From: a phage
Length of the DNA: 64,000 nucleotides
Sequence record: OZ346219.1
Strand: one strand, 5' to 3'
Part shown: piece after piece, positions 1 to 39,584 of the stretch
Layout of the letters: the number at the start of each line of letters is the position of its first letter
Position numbering within the stretch: the first letter of the stretch is position 1
Translations under genes and position numbers: made by a program
Notes under the pieces: model-generated
Database searches by the model: none
Told to the model about the DNA's origin: nothing
What the model saw: only the letters and a program-made list of their open reading frames with translations

Positions 1-632
1 CCGCCTAGCTTAGAATGCTGTTTACTGTACCCTTTATTAATCTGCAACGGTTTCTTTTCTGGCATTATAAAGCCTTGTCCGGTCCATAAGCAAGTCTTTT
101 TCGGGTACATATCACGGGCGGCGATATACTCAGGAAAAGTAGGATGTTTATCATCTTCCGGCAAATAACCGCCATATTCCCACGGGTGGAACATGTAATC
201 AGGCTTACGCCACATGCTAGAGATAACGCTTACAGGATTCTCTATCATGTAGGGAACTCCTAGCCATTCACCCAAATAAGCGGTTATTTTAGCTGCCCTT
301 ACATCATGAACTTGAATCAATGGTCCTTGTTCTCGTTTCTTTCGTTCAAAGTGTGCAGCGCCACTAACAGCTAAATTGGTGCACGGTGGGAATGCAAAGA
401 TAATATCCGGTTTCCCCCATTCAAGGTCCATTGCTCTTTCCAGCCAGTTCAAATCAATCCAGGTGTTTACATAGGTAATGTTTGGATGTTCAAATCTGGT
501 ATTATACTTTTTGTATGTGCCGTGGTCGCCATCATCAGCATTAAAGCAGATCACCTTATGACCTGCTTTAGCCCATTCTAGCCCCATTATCCCCGATCCG
601 TCAAAGTTACAGAATATTAATTTTTGTTTCAT
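1..632 (-). CDS. putative DNA (cytosine-5)-methyltransferase-like protein, N-terminal part only (gene runs off the window start)
   Basis: Open minus-strand frame from ATG at 630-632 to position 1, over 200 codons with no stop; hand translation MKQKLIFCNFDGSG...FAFPPCTNLAVSG...MIENP shows FxGxG, PPC and ENV-like motifs; not in ORF track because truncated. Confidence 0.45.
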   Translation of the reverse strand, partial: MKQKLIFCNFDGSGIMGLEWAKAGHKVICFNADDGDHGTYKKYNTRFEHPNITYVNTWIDLNWLERAMDLEWGKPDIIFAFPPCTNLAVSGAAHFERKKREQGPLIQVHDVRAAKITAYLGEWLGVPYMIENPVSVISSMWRKPDYMFHPWEYGGYLPEDDKHPTFPEYIAARDMYPKKTCLWTGQGFIMPEKKPLQINKGYSKQHSKLG

Positions 633-874
633 ATACGCCCCTTTAATCCAACACAGATTTTAGAAGGTTCTTTGCCGTGCCACATTAAGTAAAGTCCGTT
701 AATGCGGCCTTGTTTTGTATATGATTCTTTTCTGATCTTCTTATAGTGTCGTGTTTCCTCAACTGATTGTTTAGAATACCAATCATAAAGGAAGAGGCAC
801 AAAGGCCAACCATTAGCGGCCTTTGTGCAGTTATTAAGAAATTCCTTATTGCGTTTAATTAATTTTCTTTTCAC
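629..874 (-). CDS. hypothetical protein (81 aa)
   Basis: ORF in the minus-strand small-gene array; abuts neighbours with 4-nt overlaps. Confidence 0.4.
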   Translation of the reverse strand: MKRKLIKRNKEFLNNCTKAANGWPLCLFLYDWYSKQSVEETRHYKKIRKESYTKQGRINGLYLMWHGKEPSKICVGLKGRI

Positions 875-1122
875 GCTGCCCCCATTGGTTTGATAGTAAC
901 AGAATCTAAAAGACCTTTGTTAGCCAGTTCGCGGCAAGTTTTCAGATCCGCAACTTCCCAGCCAGCCGCAATCAGGTTATCAATGAGGCTGTTAGCAACT
1001 TCTTCGCTCATGAAAGAGCACTGTTTGCCGATGGTGTAGCGTACACGCTGTAATTTCAGTTTACGGAAGCCTTTAACGTTCAGGTCTTTAGCGATTTTCT
1101 TTGCGGTTTCGATGTTAGCCAT
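871..1122 (-). CDS. hypothetical protein (83 aa)
   Basis: ORF directly downstream of promoter cassette 1163-1191; GGAG 8 nt before ATG. Confidence 0.45.
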   Translation of the reverse strand: MANIETAKKIAKDLNVKGFRKLKLQRVRYTIGKQCSFMSEEVANSLIDNLIAAGWEVADLKTCRELANKGLLDSVTIKPMGAA

Positions 1123-1162
1123 TGTTTGATTCTCCTAAGTGGTATCTCGTCTTGATGGTTGT

Positions 1163-1191
1163 ATTGTAGGGGAGTTATCCTCCCCTGTCAA
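1163..1191 (-). promoter_or_regulatory. early-type promoter cassette (sigma70-like) with spacer palindrome
   Basis: Minus strand TTGACA, 17-bp spacer GGGGAGGATAACTCCCC, TACAAT; A-rich upstream; conserved leader with GGAG. Confidence 0.6.
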
Positions 1192-1205
1192 CACTTTTTA
1201 TAAAA

Positions 1206-1373
1206 TTATTTGTTAATTTCCGGTGCGTTGCTCGGATAGTAACCTTCTTTAACACCCAGATATTTTGCAACCATCCCTACAATCTTCTGTGCTACTACAA
1301 TGTCAAATTTCAGATAATCTTCGCCGTGGGTTTCAATGATATATGCTTCACATGCTGCTTTAGTCTCGAACAT
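1206..1373 (-). CDS. small hypothetical protein (55 aa), duplicate copy 1
   Basis: Hand translation MFETKAACEAYIIETHGEDYLKFDIVVAQKIVGMVAKYLGVKEGYYPSNAPEINK; near-identical second copy at 4492-4659; promoter cassette upstream. Confidence 0.4.
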   Translation of the reverse strand: MFETKAACEAYIIETHGEDYLKFDIVVAQKIVGMVAKYLGVKEGYYPSNAPEINK

Positions 1374-1406
1374 TTTGATTCTCCTATTTCGTTTCGTTAT
1401 GTGTGT

Positions 1407-1435
1407 ATTATAGGGGATCTCCCGATCCCCGTCAA
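1407..1435 (-). promoter_or_regulatory. early-type promoter cassette with spacer palindrome
   Basis: TTGACG, 17-bp spacer GGGATCGGGAGATCCCC, TATAAT. Confidence 0.6.
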
Positions 1436-1449
1436 CAACTTTTTTAAAA

Positions 1450-1731
1450 TTATTCGTGATTAGTTTCGATGTTGTGCATTTTGCACCAGTTCAGCCAATC
1501 GCCCAGATCTTGATAGTTGATGCTTTTATCTGCTGCCATCGTTTTTGTCTTGATACCCATATGTGCGTTATGAGTAAGCATTTTTACAGTGAACTCGATT
1601 TTATCGCCTTTAGCTTTAACATCAACCAGTTTTGTCCACTGGCTACCAGCACCGCGAATGTTCATACCAACGATGTTTCCGATGTATGCTTCTTTGTTTT
1701 TCAGGATTTCGGTTGCTTTGATGAATTTCAT
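1450..1731 (-). CDS. hypothetical protein (93 aa)
   Basis: ORF downstream of promoter cassette 1765-1793 with conserved leader and GGAG. Confidence 0.45.
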   Translation of the reverse strand: MKFIKATEILKNKEAYIGNIVGMNIRGAGSQWTKLVDVKAKGDKIEFTVKMLTHNAHMGIKTKTMAADKSINYQDLGDWLNWCKMHNIETNHE

Positions 1732-1764
1732 TTTTGATTCTCCAGTTCGTTTCGGTATGGGTGT

Positions 1765-1793
1765 ATTATGCTATGTTCTTACTTTGGTGTCAA
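1765..1793 (-). promoter_or_regulatory. early-type promoter cassette
   Basis: TTGACA, 17 bp, CATAAT; same upstream A-tract and leader, no spacer palindrome. Confidence 0.5.
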
Positions 1794-1802
1794 CAACTTT
1801 TT

Positions 1803-2072
1803 TTAGATATTTTCAGAAATAAATTTTAAAACTTGACGTAAATGTTTCTCATCTTTGATAGTCGCCGGAAGTTCTTCTTTTACTTCCTGTGCAAGATAGA
1901 TATTTCCGTTCCAAGTGAAAGATCCGTCTTCGTTTACGCGATAGCTGAACATCCACTCGCAATCATTTTCGATTTCATATACACACAGAAGGGTGTAATC
2001 GTTAAAGCTATTGATTTCAAGGTCGAAGCCGTGACGTTTTGCAAAGTTGGTAGTGGTTTTAGTCAGCGCCAT
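1803..2072 (-). CDS. hypothetical protein (89 aa)
   Basis: ORF downstream of promoter cassette 2113-2141. Confidence 0.45.
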   Translation of the reverse strand: MALTKTTTNFAKRHGFDLEINSFNDYTLLCVYEIENDCEWMFSYRVNEDGSFTWNGNIYLAQEVKEELPATIKDEKHLRQVLKFISENI

Positions 2073-2112
2073 TGTTTGATTCTCCTAAGTGGTATCTCGT
2101 TTCGATGGGTGT

Positions 2113-2141
2113 ATTATGCTATAGGCGTGATCTGGTGTCAA
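2113..2141 (-). promoter_or_regulatory. early-type promoter cassette
   Basis: TTGACA, 17 bp, CATAAT; conserved leader. Confidence 0.5.
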
Positions 2142-2162
2142 CAACTTTTTTAATTTTTTGGA

Positions 2163-2190
2163 AATAAAAAAGCCGACACTAAGGTCGGCT
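2163..2190 (-). terminator. intrinsic terminator after ORF 2202-2507
   Basis: Minus-strand hairpin AGCCGACcttagtGTCGGCT followed by TTTTTTATTTC. Confidence 0.6.
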
Positions 2191-2201
2191 AATAAAATCA
2201 T

Positions 2202-2507
2202 TTAGACAAAATAATCATTCAGTGCAATCCGGTCGGCGTATGCTGGTGTTACGTCAATCGCAATCACTTTAACGCGTGCTTTCTTGCGACCTGGGTTTTC
2301 TCGTAACCAGTGCTCATGACCGTGAACATTTTTATACTTTGATGCTTCTTCAAATGTACGGATCGGACCTGGATAATCTGCGTAAAGGATCTCTAGGTCT
2401 TCGGTGATGTAAAAATATACATCATAATTACTGTTCTCTAGTTTAAGCAGAGACTTTCGGAACATTGGGAGATTTTCGCGGGTAAATTCAAAGATATTAT
2501 CTTTCAT
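2202..2507 (-). CDS. small protein, HxHW paralog family member A
   Basis: 101 aa; shares YFYITEDLEILYADY...HGHEHW...VIAIDV core with five neighbours. Confidence 0.5.
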   Translation of the reverse strand: MKDNIFEFTRENLPMFRKSLLKLENSNYDVYFYITEDLEILYADYPGPIRTFEEASKYKNVHGHEHWLRENPGRKKARVKVIAIDVTPAYADRIALNDYFV

Positions 2508-2560
2508 AGTATTATCCTCAATAGTTTGATGAAAAGGGGTGGGGCTTAACGCCCCGTATA

Positions 2561-2848
2561 TTAAAACAGTCCTTCCTGTACACCGTAGTAGAGTTCATCG
2601 CTGATAATTTCATTAATGCGACGGTGTGCATATTCCTGATTTGCGAAGTTATCAGCAAGTTCTACTTTAGTTTCTCCGTCATGAGTCCATTTAGTGATAA
2701 CTTTACCATCTGCAAATTTGAAGTTGAACTCTTTAGCTACTGCATCGCGTACCAGACGTGCGAACTTGTTATTACGGATTGCATTATCGGTTTCGTGTGC
2801 AGCGTGAGCGAATTTGTTAACTTTCAGAGTGATAGTAATGTATGCCAT
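2561..2848 (-). CDS. hypothetical protein (95 aa)
   Basis: ORF behind promoter cassette 2895-2923; shares an AKEFN-K segment with the ORF at 5855-6166. Confidence 0.45.
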   Translation of the reverse strand: MAYITITLKVNKFAHAAHETDNAIRNNKFARLVRDAVAKEFNFKFADGKVITKWTHDGETKVELADNFANQEYAHRRINEIISDELYYGVQEGLF

Positions 2849-2894
2849 AATTTGATTCTCCTAGTTAGAAAGTGTATCTCGTTTCGATGGGTGT

Positions 2895-2923
2895 ATTATG
2901 CTATACACCCGATCTTATGTCAA
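2895..2923 (-). promoter_or_regulatory. early-type promoter cassette
   Basis: TTGACA, 17 bp, CATAAT; conserved leader. Confidence 0.5.
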
Positions 2924-2929
2924 CACTTT

Positions 2930-3223
2930 TTATAAAATAATTTTTTGATATTTTTCTATGATGTTTGTGTAGGTCACGTCAACCGCTAGCACCGTTGCTT
3001 CGAATCCACCGTTTAGCCAATGGCTATGATCATGATCGTGAAAGAAACCAAGACCAGTACGAAGACCTTCTTTATATTCGGCGCGTACATTTAGATCATC
3101 ATCGATAAACAGATAAAACCATGAATTTTTACTAGGATTGATGATACAACCTTTCAGATTAGGGAGAATATCACGACTAAGAATAAACTTATCACCTACT
3201 TTGAACATAATATTAGTCCTCAT
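2930..3223 (-). CDS. small protein, HxHW paralog family member B
   Basis: 97 aa; FYLFIDDDL...HDHDHSHW...VLAVDV. Confidence 0.5.
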   Translation of the reverse strand: MRTNIMFKVGDKFILSRDILPNLKGCIINPSKNSWFYLFIDDDLNVRAEYKEGLRTGLGFFHDHDHSHWLNGGFEATVLAVDVTYTNIIEKYQKIIL

Positions 3224-3533
3224 TTATAAGGTCAAACCAATTGTTTTTCGCATAATGCTTAATGCGTGCTTGATCTGCTTCCGCTGGTGATAGATTCCAT
3301 GCAACCACTACAACTTCTGACGCATCGTCATCCGTTTCTGATACCCAATGATTGTGATTCATACAGTTATTTGCGATCGAGTGAGCAAATGATTTCATCA
3401 CTGGAGACGTATAATCATAGTAACGGATTTTCAGATTTTCATCAACGTACAAATAGATCGTATAAGGTTTATATTCAGTAACCAGTAACAGACAGTTACG
3501 CAATTCTGGGAAAATCTTTTTAGTTAATTTCAT
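3213..3533 (-). CDS. small protein, HxHW paralog family member C (divergent)
   Basis: Start trimmed to internal Met (MKLTKK); IYLYVDENL...NHNHW...VVVVAW. Confidence 0.4.
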   Translation of the reverse strand: MKLTKKIFPELRNCLLLVTEYKPYTIYLYVDENLKIRYYDYTSPVMKSFAHSIANNCMNHNHWVSETDDDASEVVVVAWNLSPAEADQARIKHYAKNNWFDLINED

Positions 3534-3534
3534 T

Positions 3535-3753
3535 TTATAATCCTCGGTCGCGGCTATAGTACACGGTACGCCATACAATTTCATGTTTCGTGTCGCTCCA
3601 GCACACGATCTCATTTACTCTTAAATCTTTGTTATCAACAAAAGATGAACATTGTGACGCTTCTTTCATCATTTTATCTGCTGTTTTCTCATCAAATACA
3701 GCACAGATTTCTTTATACACTCGATAATCTTTGAATTGACTCTGAATACCCAT
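3535..3753 (-). CDS. small hypothetical protein, paralog of 3713-3976
   Basis: FKDYRVYKEICAVFDEKTADKMMKEASQCSSF versus FKEYKAYQQILRVYAPEFAEKMMEDASKCPSF in the neighbour; start uncertain. Confidence 0.35.
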   Translation of the reverse strand: MGIQSQFKDYRVYKEICAVFDEKTADKMMKEASQCSSFVDNKDLRVNEIVCWSDTKHEIVWRTVYYSRDRGL

Positions 3754-3976
3754 AATTAACACCATTCCAACCAATTGTTTTTGAGAAAACGTTTATCCAC
3801 TGTTGAGTGTAACATGTTTCTTTCCATGATACAATACGAGTAGAATAATGGTTTTTGTTTCCAGAAAAGGACGGGCATTTTGATGCATCTTCCATCATCT
3901 TTTCGGCGAACTCTGGTGCGTATACTCGCAGGATCTGTTGATATGCTTTGTATTCTTTAAATTTGCTCATAATCAT
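3713..3976 (-). CDS. small hypothetical protein, paralog of 3535-3753
   Basis: 87-aa ORF; tandem paralog pair. Confidence 0.4.
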   Translation of the reverse strand: MIMSKFKEYKAYQQILRVYAPEFAEKMMEDASKCPSFSGNKNHYSTRIVSWKETCYTQQWINVFSKTIGWNGVNYGYSESIQRLSSV

Positions 3977-4235
3977 TCACTACCTTATCAGCTTCTTTTG
4001 TTGTTTTTACATCAACTGCGATAACTCGTAAAGGTTCGTCATGGTTCCACCAGTGGTCATGAATATCAGCTTGTGATTTATCACCAAAGGAATCACGAAT
4101 ATCATTTTTACATTTATAGCTAATGTGACCTTCATAGTCAACATAAAGGTAATTATCGAAAATCGGCGTTTTTAAGATCATACCGAAAAATCTTTCTTTG
4201 TGTGTCTTATCCAGCGTTGCAGTAATTCGCATCAT
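3957..4235 (-). CDS. small protein, HxHW paralog family member D
   Basis: 92 aa; YLYVDYEGHISY...DIHDHWW...VIAVDV; promoter cassette 4460-4488 upstream. Confidence 0.5.
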   Translation of the reverse strand: MMRITATLDKTHKERFFGMILKTPIFDNYLYVDYEGHISYKCKNDIRDSFGDKSQADIHDHWWNHDEPLRVIAVDVKTTKEADKVVNDYEQI

Positions 4236-4459
4236 AATATATTCCTCTTAGAAAGGGATGGTCATTTCTTGAGCTTGTACGTTCTCGTTAGGATTAAACT
4301 TCATCCAGCCGATATTGTCTACCAGCATATGCACATTTTTATCATATCCTACGTGGGTAGTCAATACTGTATGTGCTTTACCTTCAATGATGAGTTCCAT
4401 GTACTTCTGAACTTCGATAGCTTTCATTTTGATTCTCCGTTTGTTGTCTTGATGGGAGT

Positions 4460-4488
4460 ATCTTACTACTCCCTTTAATCATTGTCAA
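4460..4488 (-). promoter_or_regulatory. early-type promoter cassette with palindrome across the -10
   Basis: TTGACA, 17 bp, TAAGAT; palindrome GGGAGTAgtaagaTACTCCC places the -10 in the loop. Confidence 0.55.
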
Positions 4489-4491
4489 CTA

Positions 4492-4659
4492 TTATTTGTT
4501 AATTTCCGGTGCGTTGCTCGGATAGTAACCTTCTTTAACACCCAGATATTTTGCAACCATTCCGGTGATCTTCTGTGCTACTACGATATCGAATTTCAGG
4601 TAGTCTTCACCGTGGTTTGCTACAATGTATGCTTCGCATTCTGCTTTAGTCTGGAACAT
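4492..4659 (-). CDS. small hypothetical protein (55 aa), duplicate copy 2
   Basis: Same length and near-identical nucleotide sequence to 1206-1373; own promoter cassette 4692-4720. Confidence 0.4.
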   Translation of the reverse strand: MFQTKAECEAYIVANHGEDYLKFDIVVAQKITGMVAKYLGVKEGYYPSNAPEINK

Positions 4660-4691
4660 TTTTGATTCTCCTATCTCGTTGGTATGTGTGC

Positions 4692-4720
4692 ATTATAGGG
4701 GATCACCGATCCCCTGTCAA
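4692..4720 (-). promoter_or_regulatory. early-type promoter cassette with spacer palindrome
   Basis: TTGACA, spacer GGGGATCGGTGATCCCC, TATAAT. Confidence 0.6.
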
Positions 4721-4725
4721 CAACT

Positions 4726-5019
4726 TTATAATGCTTTATATGCGTATTTCATAAATTTGTCTGCCACTTCATTGGCATGTTCAGATTCTACGCCTGATTC
4801 TAGAACAATAGCTAGGTCGGTTTCGTCATTCCCGCCGTACCAATGATTTGATGTTCGATTTTTTTCAATTGGAAATTGGTCACTTTTATCTGTGCGACAA
4901 AATACATCTAAATGCTCGTCGATGTAAAAGATCCAATCTTCATAAAGAATAACGGTATTAGCCAGATTTTTATTGCCTTCAACGAAAGGTTCGGCTACAA
5001 ACAAATTAGTATGTTCCAT
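4726..5019 (-). CDS. small protein, HxHW paralog family member E (divergent)
   Basis: Start trimmed to Met20; IFYIDEHLDVF...TSNHW...AIVLESGVE. Confidence 0.4.
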   Translation of the reverse strand: MEHTNLFVAEPFVEGNKNLANTVILYEDWIFYIDEHLDVFCRTDKSDQFPIEKNRTSNHWYGGNDETDLAIVLESGVESEHANEVADKFMKYAYKAL

Positions 5020-5035
5020 AGTATTTTCCTCAAAA

Positions 5036-5227
5036 TTATACAGCTTCGTAAACTTCCCAATGTCCAACACCAGCACGCTTAACGAAAAGGTTTTCTTTTA
5101 TGTTATTCATAAACGTCTGGATGGATTTAATGCGGTTTGAAGGTTTCCATTCTTCGTTGGCATTGCGTCGATACATCATAACATTACCAGTTCGCTTATA
5201 TTCAGCAACCATTTTAAGACCACACAT
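5036..5227 (-). CDS. hypothetical protein (63 aa)
   Basis: ORF in minus-strand array. Confidence 0.35.
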   Translation of the reverse strand: MCGLKMVAEYKRTGNVMMYRRNANEEWKPSNRIKSIQTFMNNIKENLFVKRAGVGHWEVYEAV

Positions 5228-5283
5228 AATATTATCCTCAATTTGTGGGAGAGTATTACCCTCCCGATTATTGTTATACTACA

Positions 5284-5586
5284 TTACGCAAAATGGCGTG
5301 TCAATGCTTCTTTTGCTGTTCCGCTAAGATTCTCGATCTCTCCTGGCATAACCTCAACCGCAAGAACTTCTACAACATCCTCTGATCCTAACCAGTGAGT
5401 ATGACCTTTGTAGAACTTGATATCCCATTTATCGCTATCGCTAGCCCACCACACATCACCGTCGATAAAGTTGATGTAAAGCACACTACGACACATTGAA
5501 TTAATTACTTTCAATACTGCGCCTTTCATCTCTTCCACGGTATGGTCTTCCATTTTGAAGACCTCGCCTACCTTAACTTTTGCCAT
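5284..5586 (-). CDS. small protein, HxHW paralog family member F
   Basis: 100 aa; LYINFIDGDVWW...KGHTHW...VLAVEV. Confidence 0.5.
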   Translation of the reverse strand: MAKVKVGEVFKMEDHTVEEMKGAVLKVINSMCRSVLYINFIDGDVWWASDSDKWDIKFYKGHTHWLGSEDVVEVLAVEVMPGEIENLSGTAKEALTRHFA

Positions 5587-5603
5587 TTAGTCACCTCTCT
5601 TTA

Positions 5604-5783
5604 TTACATAACAATCACGCCAGCCGTTGAAAGTTGATGTTTCAACTGAGCATTTTCTGCTACCGTCAAATCAATGATTTCTTGTGACGCTGCAATCATA
5701 TAGCCATTGGTGATATTGTTTTGCATCAGTTCAATGGTTTCTTCGTTGTAGCGGATTTTAGCGATGATTTCGTTGAAGTTCAT
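5604..5783 (-). CDS. hypothetical protein (about 59 aa)
   Basis: Start trimmed to Met just downstream of promoter cassette 5818-5846 (ATG at 5781-5783 preceded by GGAGAATCAAT). Confidence 0.35.
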   Translation of the reverse strand: MNFNEIIAKIRYNEETIELMQNNITNGYMIAASQEIIDLTVAENAQLKHQLSTAGVIVM

Positions 5784-5817
5784 AATTGATTCTCCTAGTT
5801 CGTTTCGGTATGTGTGT

Positions 5818-5846
5818 AGTATAGGGGATCGGTGATCCCCTGTCAA
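5818..5846 (-). promoter_or_regulatory. early-type promoter cassette with spacer palindrome
   Basis: TTGACA, spacer GGGGATCACCGATCCCC, TATACT. Confidence 0.55.
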
Positions 5847-5854
5847 CAACTTTT

Positions 5855-6166
5855 TTAAAGTTTTTCCATGATAACGGTCATAATTACATCTTCTGCGCGA
5901 GCGGTCAGATTATCAGCGTCAGCATGTGGGCGGTTGGTTGTTACAGAGATAACACCGTTGCGCACTGGTTTGATGTTGATATCAAGATGATCCGCGAAAC
6001 GTTCGCCAGTTACAGAATGAATTTTGGTGTTAAATTCTTTTGCCAGTGCCTTGCGAACTTCACGAATCAGGGTAGCGTTTTTCAGTTGGTTCTCCGCGCT
6101 CATGGTCTTCTTGGTGTTCATGGTTCCGTCGAAGTCAATCATTGGCAGCGTTACGATGTATTTCAT
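5855..6166 (-). CDS. hypothetical protein (about 103 aa)
   Basis: Start trimmed to Met21 downstream of promoter cassette 6212-6240. Confidence 0.4.
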   Translation of the reverse strand: MKYIVTLPMIDFDGTMNTKKTMSAENQLKNATLIREVRKALAKEFNTKIHSVTGERFADHLDINIKPVRNGVISVTTNRPHADADNLTARAEDVIMTVIMEKL

Positions 6167-6211
6167 TTTTGATTCTCCGTTTAAGAAAGTGTGTTTCGTT
6201 TTGATGTGTGT

Positions 6212-6240
6212 AGTATAGGGGATCACCGATCCCCTGTCAA
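6212..6240 (-). promoter_or_regulatory. early-type promoter cassette with spacer palindrome
   Basis: TTGACA, spacer GGGGATCGGTGATCCCC, TATACT. Confidence 0.55.
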
Positions 6241-6252
6241 CAACTTTTTGAA

Positions 6253-6729
6253 TTATTTTTCTTGATGCTCGCGATCGTACTTTTCGAAATAAAATTCTAC
6301 TGGCTGGTCATGAATTGACAGTAAGCCAAAGCGTTTAGCCGCTCGCAATCCCATATTGCGCTGAATGTACTTCTGGAAGTTCTCGCGTATACACTTACGC
6401 CAGTATTCTAAGCCCATACAGCTTTTATAAAGATTGCATTGCACACACGCCGGATTCATGTTATCAAGTATATCATGTTCCGGTTTATGCATTCCTACAA
6501 CCTTATACTTCCACGATCCATCATCATTACGGGCAATTCGTCCATTTTCATCATAGACTACCTTTGAGCGTCGCAATACTGGTTTGATGTGGTCTGCGTG
6601 CCAGCGATCCCCTAGTTCCTCGCCACAATAGGCACAACGTCCACCATATTTCATTTTCAGGATCTGGCGTTGCTCTTTCTTTGACATTTTTTTAGGTTTA
6701 GGGGCTTTCGCCCCTTCATTATCACACAT
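6253..6729 (-). CDS. HNH-type endonuclease-like zinc-finger protein
   Basis: CAYCGEELGDRWHADHIKP (CxxC...HxDH) plus downstream CVQC; start may be the internal Met at 6687. Confidence 0.5.
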   Translation of the reverse strand: MCDNEGAKAPKPKKMSKKEQRQILKMKYGGRCAYCGEELGDRWHADHIKPVLRRSKVVYDENGRIARNDDGSWKYKVVGMHKPEHDILDNMNPACVQCNLYKSCMGLEYWRKCIRENFQKYIQRNMGLRAAKRFGLLSIHDQPVEFYFEKYDREHQEK

Positions 6730-8224
6730 CGAATACCTCTTTTACTGTATTTGCAGTGGTCTTGTCGTATCGAATACGTTTGATGATCGGGAGAAATAAA
6801 GAGAACTCCGGTTCATCTTCTTTACGTGATTTGCTGCGGATATACCCGTTGCATGTCATCTCAATGACTTTTCCAATCAGGTTATGACGGTCAGCCCATA
6901 ACATTTCTCGGTCGAGTTCATTTCGACGATCGAACGGAATTACACGTTCAGTACCATCATCACCTTTTTCGGTTGTAGTGTCGGTTAATCCCGATCCGGT
7001 GTTAGTCATCATTCGTCCGCACGCACTACGGACAGTAAAACCGCCTACCTTATTGGGGTCTTTACTATGCGGATATACATCAACAATTTCCGCGTCGAAG
7101 TCAATCACTTCTTTAAATTTAACCTGATCTTTACTACGGCGATCTTCAAATACACCATGTAAATTTTTAAGGATAATACCTTCTAAGCCCATGTTGACAT
7201 AACGATGATATACTTCGCGAGCTTCATCGATATTGTTAACTACAGTGTTTTCGATGATCTGAACACGAGGATCGTTAAGTTCTTCAACAATCTGTTTTAG
7301 TTCTTCGAATCGATCTTTATATTGCTTCGTTGCTTTCTCGTTTCCGTAATACACATCACGGTCGATAACATCCCAGACAGTGTAAACAATACATTGGGCT
7401 TCTTCTTTTGGAATAGTTCCTTTCAGTGATTTGTTGAGGATACCATTTCCGGTCTGACGATCTGCAACAACGGATTCTTTTACTGCTTCCGCTACTGGCG
7501 TTAATGGCATTTCCTCTTCTTCAAATATCCATGACAGAGTACCATCATAAACGCTTTCAACGAAGTTCTGCGCTGGTGTTTGCGAAAGGGTAGGCATATA
7601 TACCAATTCCCCATCTAGAACAATTCCACGGCCTCGTAGACGCTCTAAAACCGCAAACAAATCATCAAGCCCTTGATAGGTATTACCTGAGCGGGTATAG
7701 ATTGCTAATGTTTCCCCGTCAATATCAGCCATACCACGAGCGCCATCGCTTTTAAGTTGTGCATACGCCGGATACTTGATATTAGCAATAGTCTTATCAG
7801 AACATGACGATGCAAGGTGGCACGGTTGCTGAGGGATCAGTTTCTTCCATACCTTGTTTGCGGTGGTAGCGGAACAACCGCATTCCAGATCACGATTCAG
7901 GACCATCATTGCAACTTTAGCATCATCCTCTGACAAGCAAGTCAGAGTATCGGTAACTAGCTGTAATGCTGCATTACCAGTTACTTGACGCGTGGCAAGT
8001 TTATTTTTAAAGACCTGTAATGCACCGGATAAAGACAATACAGACGAATAGCGAGATGGTTTATCGTATTTCTTTACGCCAAACGTAACCTGTTTGCAAT
8101 ATGCCAGATAAAAGCATTCTTTCAGCGTTTCATTGCTTGCTGATTCTTTCAGAATCTTTTCTTTCAGCGATGTTTTGTCTGTTGCTGCAAGCTGATTAAT
8201 GATATTAAGAATTGACATTTTCAC
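6722..8224 (-). CDS. 30: ATP-dependent DNA ligase (T4 gp30-like)
   Basis: 500 aa; adenylation motif LKSDGARG; T4-like length and position. Confidence 0.9.
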   Translation of the reverse strand: MKMSILNIINQLAATDKTSLKEKILKESASNETLKECFYLAYCKQVTFGVKKYDKPSRYSSVLSLSGALQVFKNKLATRQVTGNAALQLVTDTLTCLSEDDAKVAMMVLNRDLECGCSATTANKVWKKLIPQQPCHLASSCSDKTIANIKYPAYAQLKSDGARGMADIDGETLAIYTRSGNTYQGLDDLFAVLERLRGRGIVLDGELVYMPTLSQTPAQNFVESVYDGTLSWIFEEEEMPLTPVAEAVKESVVADRQTGNGILNKSLKGTIPKEEAQCIVYTVWDVIDRDVYYGNEKATKQYKDRFEELKQIVEELNDPRVQIIENTVVNNIDEAREVYHRYVNMGLEGIILKNLHGVFEDRRSKDQVKFKEVIDFDAEIVDVYPHSKDPNKVGGFTVRSACGRMMTNTGSGLTDTTTEKGDDGTERVIPFDRRNELDREMLWADRHNLIGKVIEMTCNGYIRSKSRKEDEPEFSLFLPIIKRIRYDKTTANTVKEVFDV

Positions 8225-16577: not shown

Positions 16578-16745
16578 TCACTTTTTAACACAAAAGAACT
16601 TAGTATTTCTGTTAACTTCGATATCCTGCTGCAATTCCTGCACAGCTTCAAAACAATTTTGATGTGATGAAAACTCTACGCTGGTAACAGTTCCTTTATT
16701 ATATGATCCTACGCTAACGGAAAGCAATAACCATAATGTAGCCAT
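16578..16745 (-). CDS. small hydrophobic-N-terminus protein (55 aa), tandem paralog
   Basis: Hand translation MATLWLLLSVSVGSYNKGTVTSVEF...FFCVKK; start overlaps upstream stop as TAATG. Confidence 0.35.
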   Translation of the reverse strand: MATLWLLLSVSVGSYNKGTVTSVEFSSHQNCFEAVQELQQDIEVNRNTKFFCVKK

Positions 16746-16918
16746 TAGTTCACCTTTTGTTTTTCAACGCAATATAGATTCATAAAGCGTTTATTGTCTT
16801 CACGGATAATCTCGCGAGCTTTAACGCAATCCTGCTTTGTTGCAAACTCAATGCTTGACATATTTCCGTAATTATACATTGAATTGCTGATTGCAATCAA
16901 TAACCATACAGTAGCCAT
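16745..16918 (-). CDS. small hydrophobic-N-terminus protein (57 aa), tandem paralog
   Basis: Hand translation MATVWLLIAISNSMYNYGNMSSIEF...LYCVEK; TAATG overlaps both sides. Confidence 0.35.
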   Translation of the reverse strand: MATVWLLIAISNSMYNYGNMSSIEFATKQDCVKAREIIREDNKRFMNLYCVEKQKVN

Positions 16919-22007: not shown

Positions 22008-23180
22008 CTCTTTTTCAAAAGATTTTACAATATACATGATAGTGCTCAATTCAGACGGCGCTACTGTCTCTGTGTAGCCGTCCGGCATATCTTCTTTTGA
22101 GATATAGGAAGTTTTACCTTTCATAGCTTCCTTGATCTTGTTCTCTAATTCTAAGATCTTTTGACCATCTTGTAAAGTCAATTCATAAAAGATCTCGTGG
22201 TCGAACTGAGATTTACTGCTTTGTTGTTTTAGTCTTTTGGTGGTATTAGAATTTGTGACCCCAAATTTTACCCCGATTAATAAATGCTCTTTTATTAATT
22301 TTTGAATATACAGAGTTCCTTTTTTTAATGGATTGTACCCATATTTTGCACATTTAGGACATCGAGTTCCGTTCTGAAAATCAGTTATTCTAGGACTAAA
22401 TCCATGTCCATGATCACATAACAACTTTAATCTTGTATTCACACCTTTCCATTCATCTACAAAACCATTACATGTTATATTTTCTTCAACGAAAATTGGT
22501 TTAAGTCTTTCAAGATATTCTTCTTTTGAACGAGCATAGTTTTTTGCACACTTAAAACAACGTCTTCCCGCTTGAAAACTAGATATAATTGGATTAAATT
22601 CATGACCATACTCACACAATAAATTCATTTTTGTTTTGTTGCCGTTCCATTCACCAATAAATCCGTTAAAAATTATGTTCTCTTTTATGAAAATTGGTTT
22701 AAATCTTTCAAGATATTCTTCTTTTGATAAAGCATAATTATGTGCGCATTTAGGACATCGAGTCCCTCTCCGAAAATTTGTTATTGTCGGTGCAAATTCG
22801 TGTCCTTCACAACACACTAAATCTAACTTTGTGAATACACCTTTCCATTCATCTACAAAACCATTACATGTTATATTTTCTTCAACGAAAATTGGTTTAA
22901 GTCTTTCAAGATATTCTTCTTTTGATAAGGAATAATTATGTGCGCATCTAGGGCAACGTTTACCTTTTTGAAAATCTGATATTCTTGGTGTAAATTCATG
23001 TCCTTCACAACACACCAAACCCAATTTTGTTACGTTGCCTTTCCACTCACCAACAAATCCATTAAATACGATATTTTCTTTTTCGAAAATTGGTTTAAGT
23101 CTTTCGTAATATTCCGTAGGACTAATCGAGTTGTATTTTTTCTTAACCCATTCAATCTCATGAGCTTGACGTACTAACAT
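21996..23180 (-). CDS. tandem-repeat zinc-ribbon protein with T5orf172/GIY-YIG-like C-terminal domain
   Basis: Four repeats of about 62-66 aa (EEYLERLKPIF...NGFV.EWKG...CxxGHEF...RCPxCA) then GTLYIQKLIKEHLLIGVKFGVTNSNTTKRL; 85-bp exact DNA repeat at about 22438 and 22847. Confidence 0.6.
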   Translation of the reverse strand: MLVRQAHEIEWVKKKYNSISPTEYYERLKPIFEKENIVFNGFVGEWKGNVTKLGLVCCEGHEFTPRISDFQKGKRCPRCAHNYSLSKEEYLERLKPIFVEENITCNGFVDEWKGVFTKLDLVCCEGHEFAPTITNFRRGTRCPKCAHNYALSKEEYLERFKPIFIKENIIFNGFIGEWNGNKTKMNLLCEYGHEFNPIISSFQAGRRCFKCAKNYARSKEEYLERLKPIFVEENITCNGFVDEWKGVNTRLKLLCDHGHGFSPRITDFQNGTRCPKCAKYGYNPLKKGTLYIQKLIKEHLLIGVKFGVTNSNTTKRLKQQSSKSQFDHEIFYELTLQDGQKILELENKIKEAMKGKTSYISKEDMPDGYTETVAPSELSTIMYIVKSFEKELTA

Positions 23181-38570: not shown

Positions 38571-38817
38571 ATTGGCGCATAGACGCGCCTGAATCGCATT
38601 TTGACGCTGTATGATGAAAACAGGTAGCGTACCAGTCATCGGCTTGTTTGTCTTCGTCAGAAAACGCGTAATTGCGTTGTATGCCGTTTTCTACTTTGAC
38701 CAGTGCAATAGCTGTTTCTGGAAGATCAATCAATCGAACAAAATCACCATCTTCCCACTCTACACGAGCAATATCATAGCCCATCTCAAAGTATACAATC
38801 GCTTGTTCTAATTTCAT
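38569..38817 (-). CDS. hypothetical protein (82 aa), possible DUF2829-like fold
   Basis: N-terminus MKLEQAIVYFEMGYDIARVEWEDG loosely follows the EAL..lK.G..v.R..W pattern; weak. Confidence 0.35.
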   Translation of the reverse strand: MKLEQAIVYFEMGYDIARVEWEDGDFVRLIDLPETAIALVKVENGIQRNYAFSDEDKQADDWYATCFHHTASKCDSGASMRQ

Positions 38818-39143
38818 TCTGGAAACTTCCCGTAAACATTCTCTGCCAGCTTACGTGCATCTTTTACAATATCTTTCATGTAATGACTATAATTTTTAGC
38901 TAGATCAATTATGCAATCAACAAAGAAGTAATAGCGTCGCAGTGCTACCAGCTCAACATCTTCAAGATGACCATTTTCTCCAATCGCTGAAATATGTTTA
39001 AATTCCTTTCGGATCGCGTCCATCGCTACATTAACTTCTTTTATAATATCTTTCGTATTATATGCACCTCGACTAATCAAAATTTTGGTTAGGTCTTCTG
39101 CTTTTTCGTGAAAGTTGTCAATTTCAAACTCGATCATAATCAC
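38814..39143 (-). CDS. hypothetical protein (109 aa), tandem paralog
   Basis: Shares C-terminal ...AENVYGKF with 39252-39584 (...TENIFGKF). Confidence 0.45.
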   Translation of the reverse strand: MIMIEFEIDNFHEKAEDLTKILISRGAYNTKDIIKEVNVAMDAIRKEFKHISAIGENGHLEDVELVALRRYYFFVDCIIDLAKNYSHYMKDIVKDARKLAENVYGKFPE

Positions 39144-39251: not shown

Positions 39252-39584
39252 TCAAAATTTACCGAAAATATTCTCTGTCATAATTCTTGCTTCGTCGATT
39301 ATTTTCGTCATGTTCATGGTGTAGTTATGATCATTTAGTGCCTTAATGACAACGAGCAAGGAATCTAAAAACACTCGATACCGGGTATATTCTACGCTAT
39401 TTGTGAATACCGATGTTTTCTCTACTTTATCGATCAGATAGCCTAAAGCCGATAGCGCCTCGTTTACTTCCCTTGTTACTTTATCGGCGCTAAACAACAC
39501 CGGATAAAGACGCGGTGTGATTAACCGCGCTGCCTCTTTCAATTCGGTCGCTTTCCATGATTCATATTTGTCATAGTTAAACAT
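39252..39584 (-). CDS. hypothetical protein (110 aa), tandem paralog
   Basis: Paralog of 38814-39143. Confidence 0.45.
   Translation of the reverse strand: MFNYDKYESWKATELKEAARLITPRLYPVLFSADKVTREVNEALSALGYLIDKVEKTSVFTNSVEYTRYRVFLDSLLVVIKALNDHNYTMNMTKIIDEARIMTENIFGKF

Follow-up and report, generated by a model that had tools for sequence, protein, structure and literature searches.

An old pair of small early genes in a Krischvirus genome, probably made alike at the 3′ end by gene conversion

In this study, we analyzed two closely similar small genes in a 64,000-nt stretch of phage DNA (record OZ346219.1; the window), which belongs to Krischvirus (RB49-like T4-type coliphages) and is 98.9% identical to Krischvirus phage kaaroe. 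Sequence comparison across the genus places the pair before any of the sequenced Krischvirus genomes diverged from one another. The segment over which the two copies are identical is very probably a derived state, in which the 3′ third of copy A in the lineage of the window was overwritten by copy B through non-reciprocal interlocus gene conversion of 46–73 nt. The copies would look almost identical in the window because this third of copy A took on the copy B sequence. The initial annotation had regarded the pair as direct evidence that whole cassettes are copied within the genome; what the pair shows instead is recombination between old copies.

The locus lies in the hyperplastic region bounded by DNA ligase (gene 30) and alt, and the part that holds both copies is syntenic with RB49, Phi1 and GEC-3S. 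Both 168-nt ORFs are present as first described, each encoding 55 aa. Collapse or expansion during assembly was rejected as a source of the pair, as more than 50 independent assemblies carry the same two loci. The copies and their parts are as follows:
1206..1373, minus strand: copy A, a 55-aa early ORF, orthologue of RB49/Phi1 ORF191, phrog_8009
4492..4659, minus strand: copy B, a 55-aa early ORF, orthologue of RB49/Phi1 ORF205, phrog_8009
1275..1373, minus strand: 5′ 99 nt of copy A, differing from 4561–4659 at 20 sites fixed genus-wide
4561..4659, minus strand: 5′ 99 nt of copy B, where the copies have diverged
1206..1274, minus strand: 3′ 69 nt of copy A (ORF nt 100–168), 100% identical to 4492–4560, the putative converted tract
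4492..4560, minus strand: 3′ 69 nt of copy B, the putative conversion donor sequence

Together the copies form a 172-nt direct repeat with 88% identity, and their proteins (89% aa identity, E=9e-35 in BLASTP) are the closest paralog pair within the window. The other paralog pairs named in the initial annotation are indeed more diverged, with 40% aa identity (E=1e-16, BLASTP) for 3535–3753 and 3713–3976 and 26% for 38814–39143 and 39252–39584; no significant BLASTP match was found between 2561–2848 and 5855–6166, which have only a 24-residue motif in common (Smith-Waterman z about 6.5; 0 of 2000 shuffles). The near-identity over the whole length that had been claimed for the pair does not hold. 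All 20 mismatches fall within ORF nt 1–99 (79.8% identity), 13 of the changes being synonymous and seven non-synonymous (Nei-Gojobori), and the remaining 69 nt are the same in both copies. With 20 randomly placed mismatches, a run of at least 69 identical bases has a probability of P=0.00026, or P=0.006 when only third codon positions are considered. Similarity ends downstream at the stop codon, and upstream the 88% identity persists through the RBS and the promoter. The pairwise alignment that had been proposed for delimiting a duplicated unit covers ORF, RBS and promoter, but inclusion of the promoter in the unit is unprovable because a cassette unrelated to the pair (5784–5858) is equally similar (88%) to the copy-A promoter.

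About 52 of 59 Krischvirus records contain both copies, among them RB49, Phi1, JSE and GEC-3S. An identical set of ~20 A/B differences in nt 1–99 is fixed in all genomes examined, with distances of 0–8 among A copies and among B copies and of 11–22 (mean 19.5) between A and B. Comparison of the A and B consensus over codons 1–33 gave pS=0.645 (dS about 1.5) and dN=0.095, and orthologue dS across the genus is 0.03–0.2. Because the two copies occur in so many genomes with the same fixed 5′ differences and a pS of this size, we conclude from these alignments that the pair predates the radiation of the genus. The coding sequences of both copies are under purifying selection.

A different picture emerges for the 3′ tail, for which the states of 19 A copies were compared using phage records from GenBank. 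The tail is short, with 69 nt and six informative sites. In most genomes it carries five to six synonymous A/B differences. The state GCCATA (nt 108/114/117/120/141/153) is found in 11 of the 19 A copies, which come from the species RB49, georgiaone and gec3s and from several genomes without species assignment; the JSE A tail is a partial mosaic (GTCATA). In the window, the A tail reads ATGTGG at these sites, the same as its own B copy, so all six ancestral A-type synonymous states (G108, C114, C117, A120, T141 and A153) are now B-type, which sets the minimum tract in the window at ORF nt 108–153 (1221–1266). In the A tails of the window and kaaroe the B-type states are contiguous over nt 108–141, and in kvi over nt 99–120. 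The window, kvi and kaaroe form a clade by the 1-kb flank downstream of copy A (divergence ≤0.6%), and the converted tract is common to all three. No 100% match to the converted A tail together with its A-specific flank was found among phage records; about 10 records lie within two mismatches, and most have six.

Thus, paralogs are closer than orthologues inside a contiguous tract and not outside it, the pattern of interlocus gene conversion. The sequence closest to the A tail of the window is its own B tail (0 differences, against six sites for Phi1 A), whereas the 5′ part of the same gene shows 0–3 differences to orthologous A copies and at least 14 to any B copy. The tract stops at the edge of homology, which is the stop codon, and a classical two-sided conversion would have to place its 3′ junction in about 15–19 identical bases; the route may have been a double crossover, a template switch or an exchange between co-infecting genomes. 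The pS of the ancestral tail is 0.37 as compared with 0.65 for the 5′ part, and earlier conversion events or a constraint on the nucleotide sequence may account for this lower value.

Related genomes carry further tracts and deletions at the same locus. B-type tracts were seen at nt 114–141 in Cognac and FL37 and at nt 7–24 plus the 5′UTR in copy A of PTE-Eco09; copy B of PTE-Eco09 carries the A state at nt 51–75, i.e., the reverse direction. Deletions involve the block between the copies:
1374..4491, minus strand: inter-copy block, orthologues of ORF193–ORF204, about 3.1–3.3 kb

This block is lost in Cognac and FL04, leaving a single copy flanked by ORF206 and ORF190. The single copy of Cognac combines a B-type promoter and 5′UTR with an A-type ORF, which puts the crossover in the 5′UTR, and in FL04 the crossover is located inside the -35/stem. 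In JK32, cassette A alone was cleanly excised and the junction is a chimeric PeSL (promoter-early stem-loop); further PeSL-bounded deletions are present in MIZ4 and PTE-Eco09. The slot adjoining copy A holds different ORFs in RB49/FL38 and in JSE. The two repeats and their flanking PeSLs are recombination substrates in nature. T4-type homologous recombination and replication functions of the phage itself, which work on short homologies, would probably make these exchanges.

PeSL cassettes were defined by Arbiol et al. (2010; PMC2839356) in this same hyperplastic region. Promoter-plus-ORF cassettes of the region were excised experimentally as mini-circles, one of them carrying ORFs 191–194, and terminator activity was measured for a PeSL stem-loop; RB49/phi1 yielded no integrase or dedicated recombinase in that work (PMC2839356). 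There are 10 promoter cassettes in positions 1–6300 of the window, the region between dcm and ligase, and the PeSL cassettes have one shared orientation. Those next to the two copies are:
1374..1449, minus strand: PeSL driving copy A, with AT-rich tract, promoter, stem-loop, then SD AGGAG
4660..4725, minus strand: PeSL driving copy B, orthologue of PeSL206/205, with promoter, stem-loop, then SD
1123..1205, minus strand: PeSL immediately 3′ of copy A, serving the ORF190 orthologue (871–1122) as promoter
4428..4491, minus strand: PeSL immediately 3′ of copy B, serving the ORF204 orthologue (4248–4427) as promoter, its stem-loop overlapping the -10 (GGGAGTAGTAAGATACTCCC)

Each ORF lies behind its own promoter cassette, as the initial annotation had it. 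The copy-A promoter, TTGACG-17-TATAAT at 1435–1407 (-35 at 1435–1430, -10 at 1412–1407), has 11 of 12 matches to the sigma-70 consensus, and the copy-B promoter, TTGACA-17-TATAAT at 4720–4692 (-35 at 4720–4715, -10 at 4697–4692), is perfect at 12 of 12. Both have an A/T-rich run upstream and a stem-loop in the -35/-10 spacer (GGGGATC-GGGA-GATCCCC at 1413–1430 for A; GGGGATC-GGT-GATCCCC at 4698–4714 for B), with predicted folding energies of -14.9 and -15.2 kcal/mol for the A and B cassettes including the hairpin, and both ORFs are preceded by AGGAGAATCAAA(A)ATG. Promoter activity of PeSL206/205 was about 13,000 Miller units (PMC2839356). The PeSL downstream of copy A is of a different stem-loop subclass, and its 63% identity to the region 3′ of copy B is background between non-homologous sequences. 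Both copies are PeSL cassettes: each combines a promoter, a G(n)-loop-C(n) hairpin, an SD and a small ORFan in the hyperplastic region, with indels that cross over in PeSLs.

How the genome came to hold two copies is a separate matter. Cassette copying mediated by PeSLs may have given rise to the original second copy, or this copy may be a diverged homologue gained at a PeSL. It is possible, if rather unlikely, that two diverged homologues came in independently, for instance as PeSL mini-circles of different phage origin, and exchanged sequence afterwards. PeSL-mediated insertion is the published model (PMC2839356), the slot neighbouring copy A does take different ORFs, the 5′ synonymous sites are near saturation, and homologues exist elsewhere (in the unrelated siphoviruses Swiduovirus swi2 and Skatevirus SeSz-2, 70% aa, and as P0003, 83% aa, on an unclassified 7.6-kb contig). 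However, A and B are mutually closest relatives, just three 50%-identity clusters were found in 1.84 billion representative proteins, the PeSLs upstream of A and B match each other best or tie for the best match, and no donor lineage is known. P0003 is of no help in dating the duplication because its contig is unclassified and its gene abuts the upstream gene with no intergenic space, leaving no room for a promoter cassette. Speculatively, and with doubtful standing, the pair could instead be the footprint of integrase-free, integron-like copying, in which a PeSL mini-circle with the gene on it re-inserted at another PeSL 3.3 kb away and both copies were then kept, their N-terminal helices diverging (specificity) and their C-terminal motif being homogenised by conversion. 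If true, this would be the first natural case of intragenomic PeSL cassette copying, in contrast to cassettes being gained or lost from one genome to another.

The encoded protein belongs to a narrow family. Neither ORF has a match in Pfam, and both fall in phrog_8009, a PHROGs family of unknown function. An exhaustive HMMER search of the 1.84 billion representative proteins returned the three clusters (at 50% identity), a word-indexed search of 5.8 billion proteins returned four matches, and a scan of IMG/VR with the protein as query gave two loci only. The cassette is absent from E. coli complete genomes, and for this reason a reading as a prophage or host gene was rejected. The predicted protein consists of two helices and a disordered tail (AlphaFold2, 5-sequence alignment, mean pLDDT 67), a model of too low confidence to support a fold search. 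It ends in the C-terminal peptide KEGYYPSNAPEINK, with an invariant tail, KEGYYPSNAP. The ORF191/ORF205 protein would act during early infection, with a probable target in the host; with a family too narrow (four matches; three clusters), functional inference is unsupported.

Residues 34–55 are invariant in all copies, KEGYYPSNA is retained even in the siphovirus homologues, and the next -35 begins 4 nt past the copy-B stop, so that the end of the ORF falls where an UP element would be expected. Purifying selection at the nucleotide level, on the invariant peptide plus an overlapping UP element or on an RNA element, might thus be invoked for the identical tail. We consider this very improbable: synonymous tail sites are polymorphic across genomes, 5–8 tail differences are tolerated in most of them, and at six of the seven polymorphic A-tail sites the other allele is precisely the B state, in contiguous tracts. 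An Rfam search of 800–6400 (E≤1) gave only a sub-threshold chance match outside both ORFs, hence no family at the tail. Conversion of copy A by copy B remains the preferred reading of the tail.

The proposal of the initial annotation, that the whole cassette was recently duplicated in this genome, can practically be dismissed: the pair is the most similar in the window (89% aa), with an identical 69-nt tail and 88% similar promoters, but about 52 of 59 genomes of the genus have both copies at these positions, close relatives among them, the identity is uneven, the 20 differences in nt 1–99 are fixed genus-wide at pS 0.645, and the identical tail is derived and limited to a few close relatives.

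The closest known system is the PeSL ORFan cassettes of RB49/phi1 (PMC2839356; Comeau et al., 2014, PMC4122927), which come from this very locus in phages of the same genus. ORF191, of which copy A is the orthologue, lies within the sequenced 191–194 mini-circle; the layout is the same (AT-rich tract, consensus -35/-10, G(n)-loop-C(n) hairpin, SD, small ORFan) and natural indels likewise cross over inside PeSLs. Unlike in the published picture, coding sequences also act as recombination substrates here, not PeSLs alone. Text searches of these two papers and of a review of T4-related genomes (PMC2993671) turned up no description of ORF191/ORF205 paralogy or of exchange between ORF bodies. As in interlocus (ectopic) gene conversion and concerted evolution, paralogs within a genome are nearer than orthologues over a tract, and the tracts are contiguous, run in both directions and leave mosaic divergence; unlike the usual cases, they measure about 20–70 nt in a 168-nt gene of a lytic phage and abut the end of homology. 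Like integron cassettes and lambdoid 'morons', an analogy also drawn by Arbiol et al. (PMC2839356), PeSL cassettes are small and self-contained accessory genes that bring their own promoter and come and go as units; unlike morons, they are proposed to move by means of homology supplied by the conserved promoter cassette.

No general concept is changed by the A/B pair. Cassette mobility in general is compatible with published work, and the pair itself is no demonstration of it. For genome scanning, the pair is a caution that high identity between dispersed phage repeats need not date a duplication; here identity would date gene conversion between copies older than the genus. What it adds to the PeSL system is that promoter cassettes and paralogous ORF bodies are both recombination substrates in the best-studied hyperplastic region of RB49-like phages, with conversion tracts tens of bases long and repeated loss of 3 kb as the outcomes. 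The two genes are a convenient natural marker system for ectopic recombination in T4-type phages, as their 168 nt hold 25 diagnostic sites.

Every gene in window positions 1-8224 lies on the minus strand, including the two small ORFs considered here and the DNA ligase gene beyond them:

1206-1373, minus strand: copy A ORF, 55 residues
4492-4659, minus strand: copy B ORF, 55 residues
6722-8224, minus strand: DNA ligase (gene 30), by synteny with RB49 and Phi1

The initial annotation had read these ORFs as near-identical over their whole length, each behind its own promoter cassette, and as a recent duplication. Both ORFs and both cassettes were found: the copy-A promoter matches the sigma-70 consensus at 11 of 12 positions and the copy-B promoter at 12 of 12, and the 17-nt spacer of each contains a GGGGATC-loop-GATCCCC hairpin. 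The whole-length near-identity did not hold. Copies A and B form a 172-nt direct repeat of 88% identity, but compared base by base all 20 mismatches fall within ORF nt 1-99 (79.8% identity), whereas nt 100-168, the tail, are 100% identical. With 20 mismatches placed at random, an identical run of that length has P = 0.00026 (P = 0.006 when restricted to third codon positions). Similarity ends immediately past the stop codon and extends upstream, at 88%, across the ribosome-binding site and promoter. The promoter element, however, is one of a repeat family represented many times in the window, and the copy-A promoter resembles an unrelated family member at 5784-5858 as closely as it does the copy-B promoter. 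For that reason the duplicated unit that can be demonstrated is the ORF; that the promoter was part of it is plausible but unproven.

Window 1-8000 matches 65 phage records, mainly Krischvirus (RB49-like T4-type) genomes; its identity to Escherichia phage kaaroe is 98.9%. Synteny with RB49 and Phi1 identifies copy A as ORF191 and copy B as ORF205, flanked by ORF190, ORF193, ORF204 and ORF206. Promoter-early stem-loop elements (PeSLs) were defined in this same hyperplastic region by Arbiol et al. (2010; PMC2839356), who measured about 13,000 Miller units for PeSL206/205, the element before ORF205, showed terminator activity of a PeSL hairpin and sequenced a mini-circle with ORFs 191-194. The window carries two transcriptionally self-contained early cassettes with related 55-aa products; strong early promotion, hairpin termination and mini-circle excision have each been shown for orthologous or neighbouring elements (PMC2839356).

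The gene was found by tblastn at 118 places in 66 phage records, with two copies in about 52 Krischvirus genomes and one copy each in seven further Krischvirus genomes and seven siphoviruses (about 70% aa identity). The copies compared, 19 A and 21 B, come from 22 genomes: the window plus 21 further Krischvirus loci, of which 19 are GenBank records and 2 are IMG/VR contigs. Every one of these genomes shows the same ~20 A/B differences in nt 1-99, where A-A and B-B distances are 0-8 versus 11-22 for A-B. Between the A and B consensus, codons 1-33 gave pS = 0.645 (dS about 1.5) and dN = 0.095 (Nei-Gojobori), compared with orthologous dS of 0.03-0.2 across the genus. A and B thus separated long before the Krischvirus radiation, and a recent duplication is refuted. 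Both copies are under purifying selection and hence real genes. The second copy may have arisen by intragenomic copying or through acquisition of a diverged homologue: A and B are mutually closest known relatives, but their synonymous sites are near saturation.

Old paralogs with recent gene conversion account instead for the identical tail. In 11 of the 19 A copies the tail reads G108, C114, C117, A120, T141 and A153; these GCCATA-type tails come from the species RB49, georgiaone and gec3s as well as from several unassigned genomes, and that of JSE is a partial mosaic (GTCATA). At the same sites the B states are A, T, G, T, G/A/T and G/A, and the two tails of one genome typically differ at 5-8 of 69 nt. 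Copy A of the window shows the B state at each of the six sites, and its tail matches that of its own copy B throughout. When tracts were scored at 25 consensus-diagnostic A/B sites, other-copy states formed contiguous blocks:

Diagnostic sites (ORF nt) in the state of the other copy
Window A and kaaroe A: 108-141 in B state
kvi A: 99-120 in B state
Cognac A and FL37 A: 114-141 in B state
FL38 A: 117-120 in B state
PTE-Eco09 A: 7-24 in B state, with B-type 5′UTR
PTE-Eco09 B: 51-75 in A state

Several B copies also have A states at 141 and/or 153, and at six of seven polymorphic A-tail sites the alternative allele is the exact B base. Most of the window's tract (minimum 46 nt, 1221-1266; maximum about 73 nt) is common to kvi and kaaroe, the window's closest relatives by downstream flank (at most 0.6% divergence). 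A 100% match to the converted A tail plus A-specific flank was found in no phage record; about ten records have two mismatches or fewer, and most have six. The pattern is one of repeated interlocus gene conversion in both directions. The T4-type recombination and replication machinery, for which less than 50 bp of homology is needed (Arbiol et al., PMC2839356), would carry out the exchanges. Because homology ends where the window's tract does, the 3′ junction of the tract would lie within the last ~15-19 identical bases, or a template switch may have occurred. In the copy-B 5′UTR (4660-4691), the window and kaaroe have two bases fewer (GAGATAGGAG vs GAGATATAGGAG, the latter in 18 of 19 other copy-B genomes examined), which shortens the leader directly ahead of the Shine-Dalgarno site.

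The 55-aa protein has no Pfam match and falls in PHROG 8009, a family without assigned function; only three clusters were found at 50% identity among 1.84 billion representatives. A low-confidence AlphaFold2 model (pLDDT 67) has two helices (residues 5-16 and 18-39) followed by a disordered tail, in which KEGYYPSNAP is invariant and kept even in siphovirus homologues. Promoter type and protein size prompt our guess of an early host-directed function. The occurrence in siphoviruses indicates that the gene family moves between unrelated phage groups. In swi2 and SeSz-2, siphoviruses of 45-48 kb from Escherichia and Salmonella, homologues of 51 aa (about 70% aa identity; 2501-2656 of either comparison locus, L011 and L012) adjoin the gene for the large terminase.

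The window holds other paralogs, among them a ~100-aa family in which a 'V(I)A(V)DV' segment comes after a histidine-rich H-x-H-W motif:

2202-2507, 2930-3223, 3213-3614 and 3957-4235, minus strand: H-x-H-W paralogs (BLASTP, 27-32% identity, E 6e-4 to 8e-12)
4726-5076 and 5284-5586, minus strand: possible members, by eye only
22475-22615 and 22871-23008, minus strand: small-ORF pair, 62% identity over 42 aa
16578-16745 and 16745-16918, minus strand: small-ORF pair, 38% identity over 55 aa

The last two pairs, each close together, were absent from the initial annotation, which had listed 2561-2848 and 5855-6166 (minus strand) as paralogs. BLASTP between the latter was not significant (E = 7.9); they have a common 24-residue motif, R-x-VR-x-A-x-AKEFN-x-K, and a Smith-Waterman score of 57 versus 26.5 ± 4.7 in shuffles, which points to a distant relationship or a common motif only.

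Spacer palindromes occur in two mirror forms that are exact reverse complements, GGGGATC-GGT-GATCCCC and GGGGATC-ACC-GATCCCC (window 4698-4714 and 6216-6232 vs 5822-5838; copy-B PeSL of comparison loci L019, L018, L020, L001 and L005); loops TGT (011D4) and ACA (SFHK24) are likewise mirror forms. Even genomes whose flanks are nearly identical, such as the window and kvi (about 0.2% divergence over the 1 kb downstream of copy A), differ in loop state at the same PeSL. This suggests that hairpin-loop inversion or PeSL-to-PeSL conversion is frequent.

Cassettes are also lost and gained. Cognac and FL04 each keep a single copy, with ORF206 on its upstream side and ORF190 on its downstream side, and have thus lost the 3.1-kb block ORF193-204. 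The Cognac copy joins a B-type promoter and 5′UTR to an A-type ORF, placing the crossover between the Shine-Dalgarno region and ORF nt 7, whereas that of FL04 lies inside the -35/stem; the different sites indicate independent deletions. JK32 lacks cassette A, and one chimeric PeSL (A-upstream -35/stem, A-downstream 5′UTR) joins ORF193 to ORF190; MIZ4 lacks ORF188-191 and PTE-Eco09 lacks ORF206-209. One insertion hot spot is the PeSL slot immediately upstream of copy A (window 1374-1449): empty in the window and Phi1, it is filled by ORF192, a signal-peptide protein, in RB49 (L002 1849-2465) and FL38 (L010), and in JSE (L016 5563-6000) by a signal-peptide ORF that is rich in lysine/arginine and unrelated to ORF192.

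Cassette mobility, the wider idea behind the initial annotation, is already published for this locus. No mention of ORF191/ORF205 paralogy was found in a text search of PMC2839356, its sequel (Comeau et al., 2014; PMC4122927) and the 2010 review on genomes related to T4 (PMC2993671), and none of A/B conversion in the first two. What is new here is limited to one previously undescribed case of conversion, between paralogs in PeSL cassettes. The indels and conversions fit the published PeSL shuffling model and extend it, since the bodies of paralogous ORFs recombine as well.
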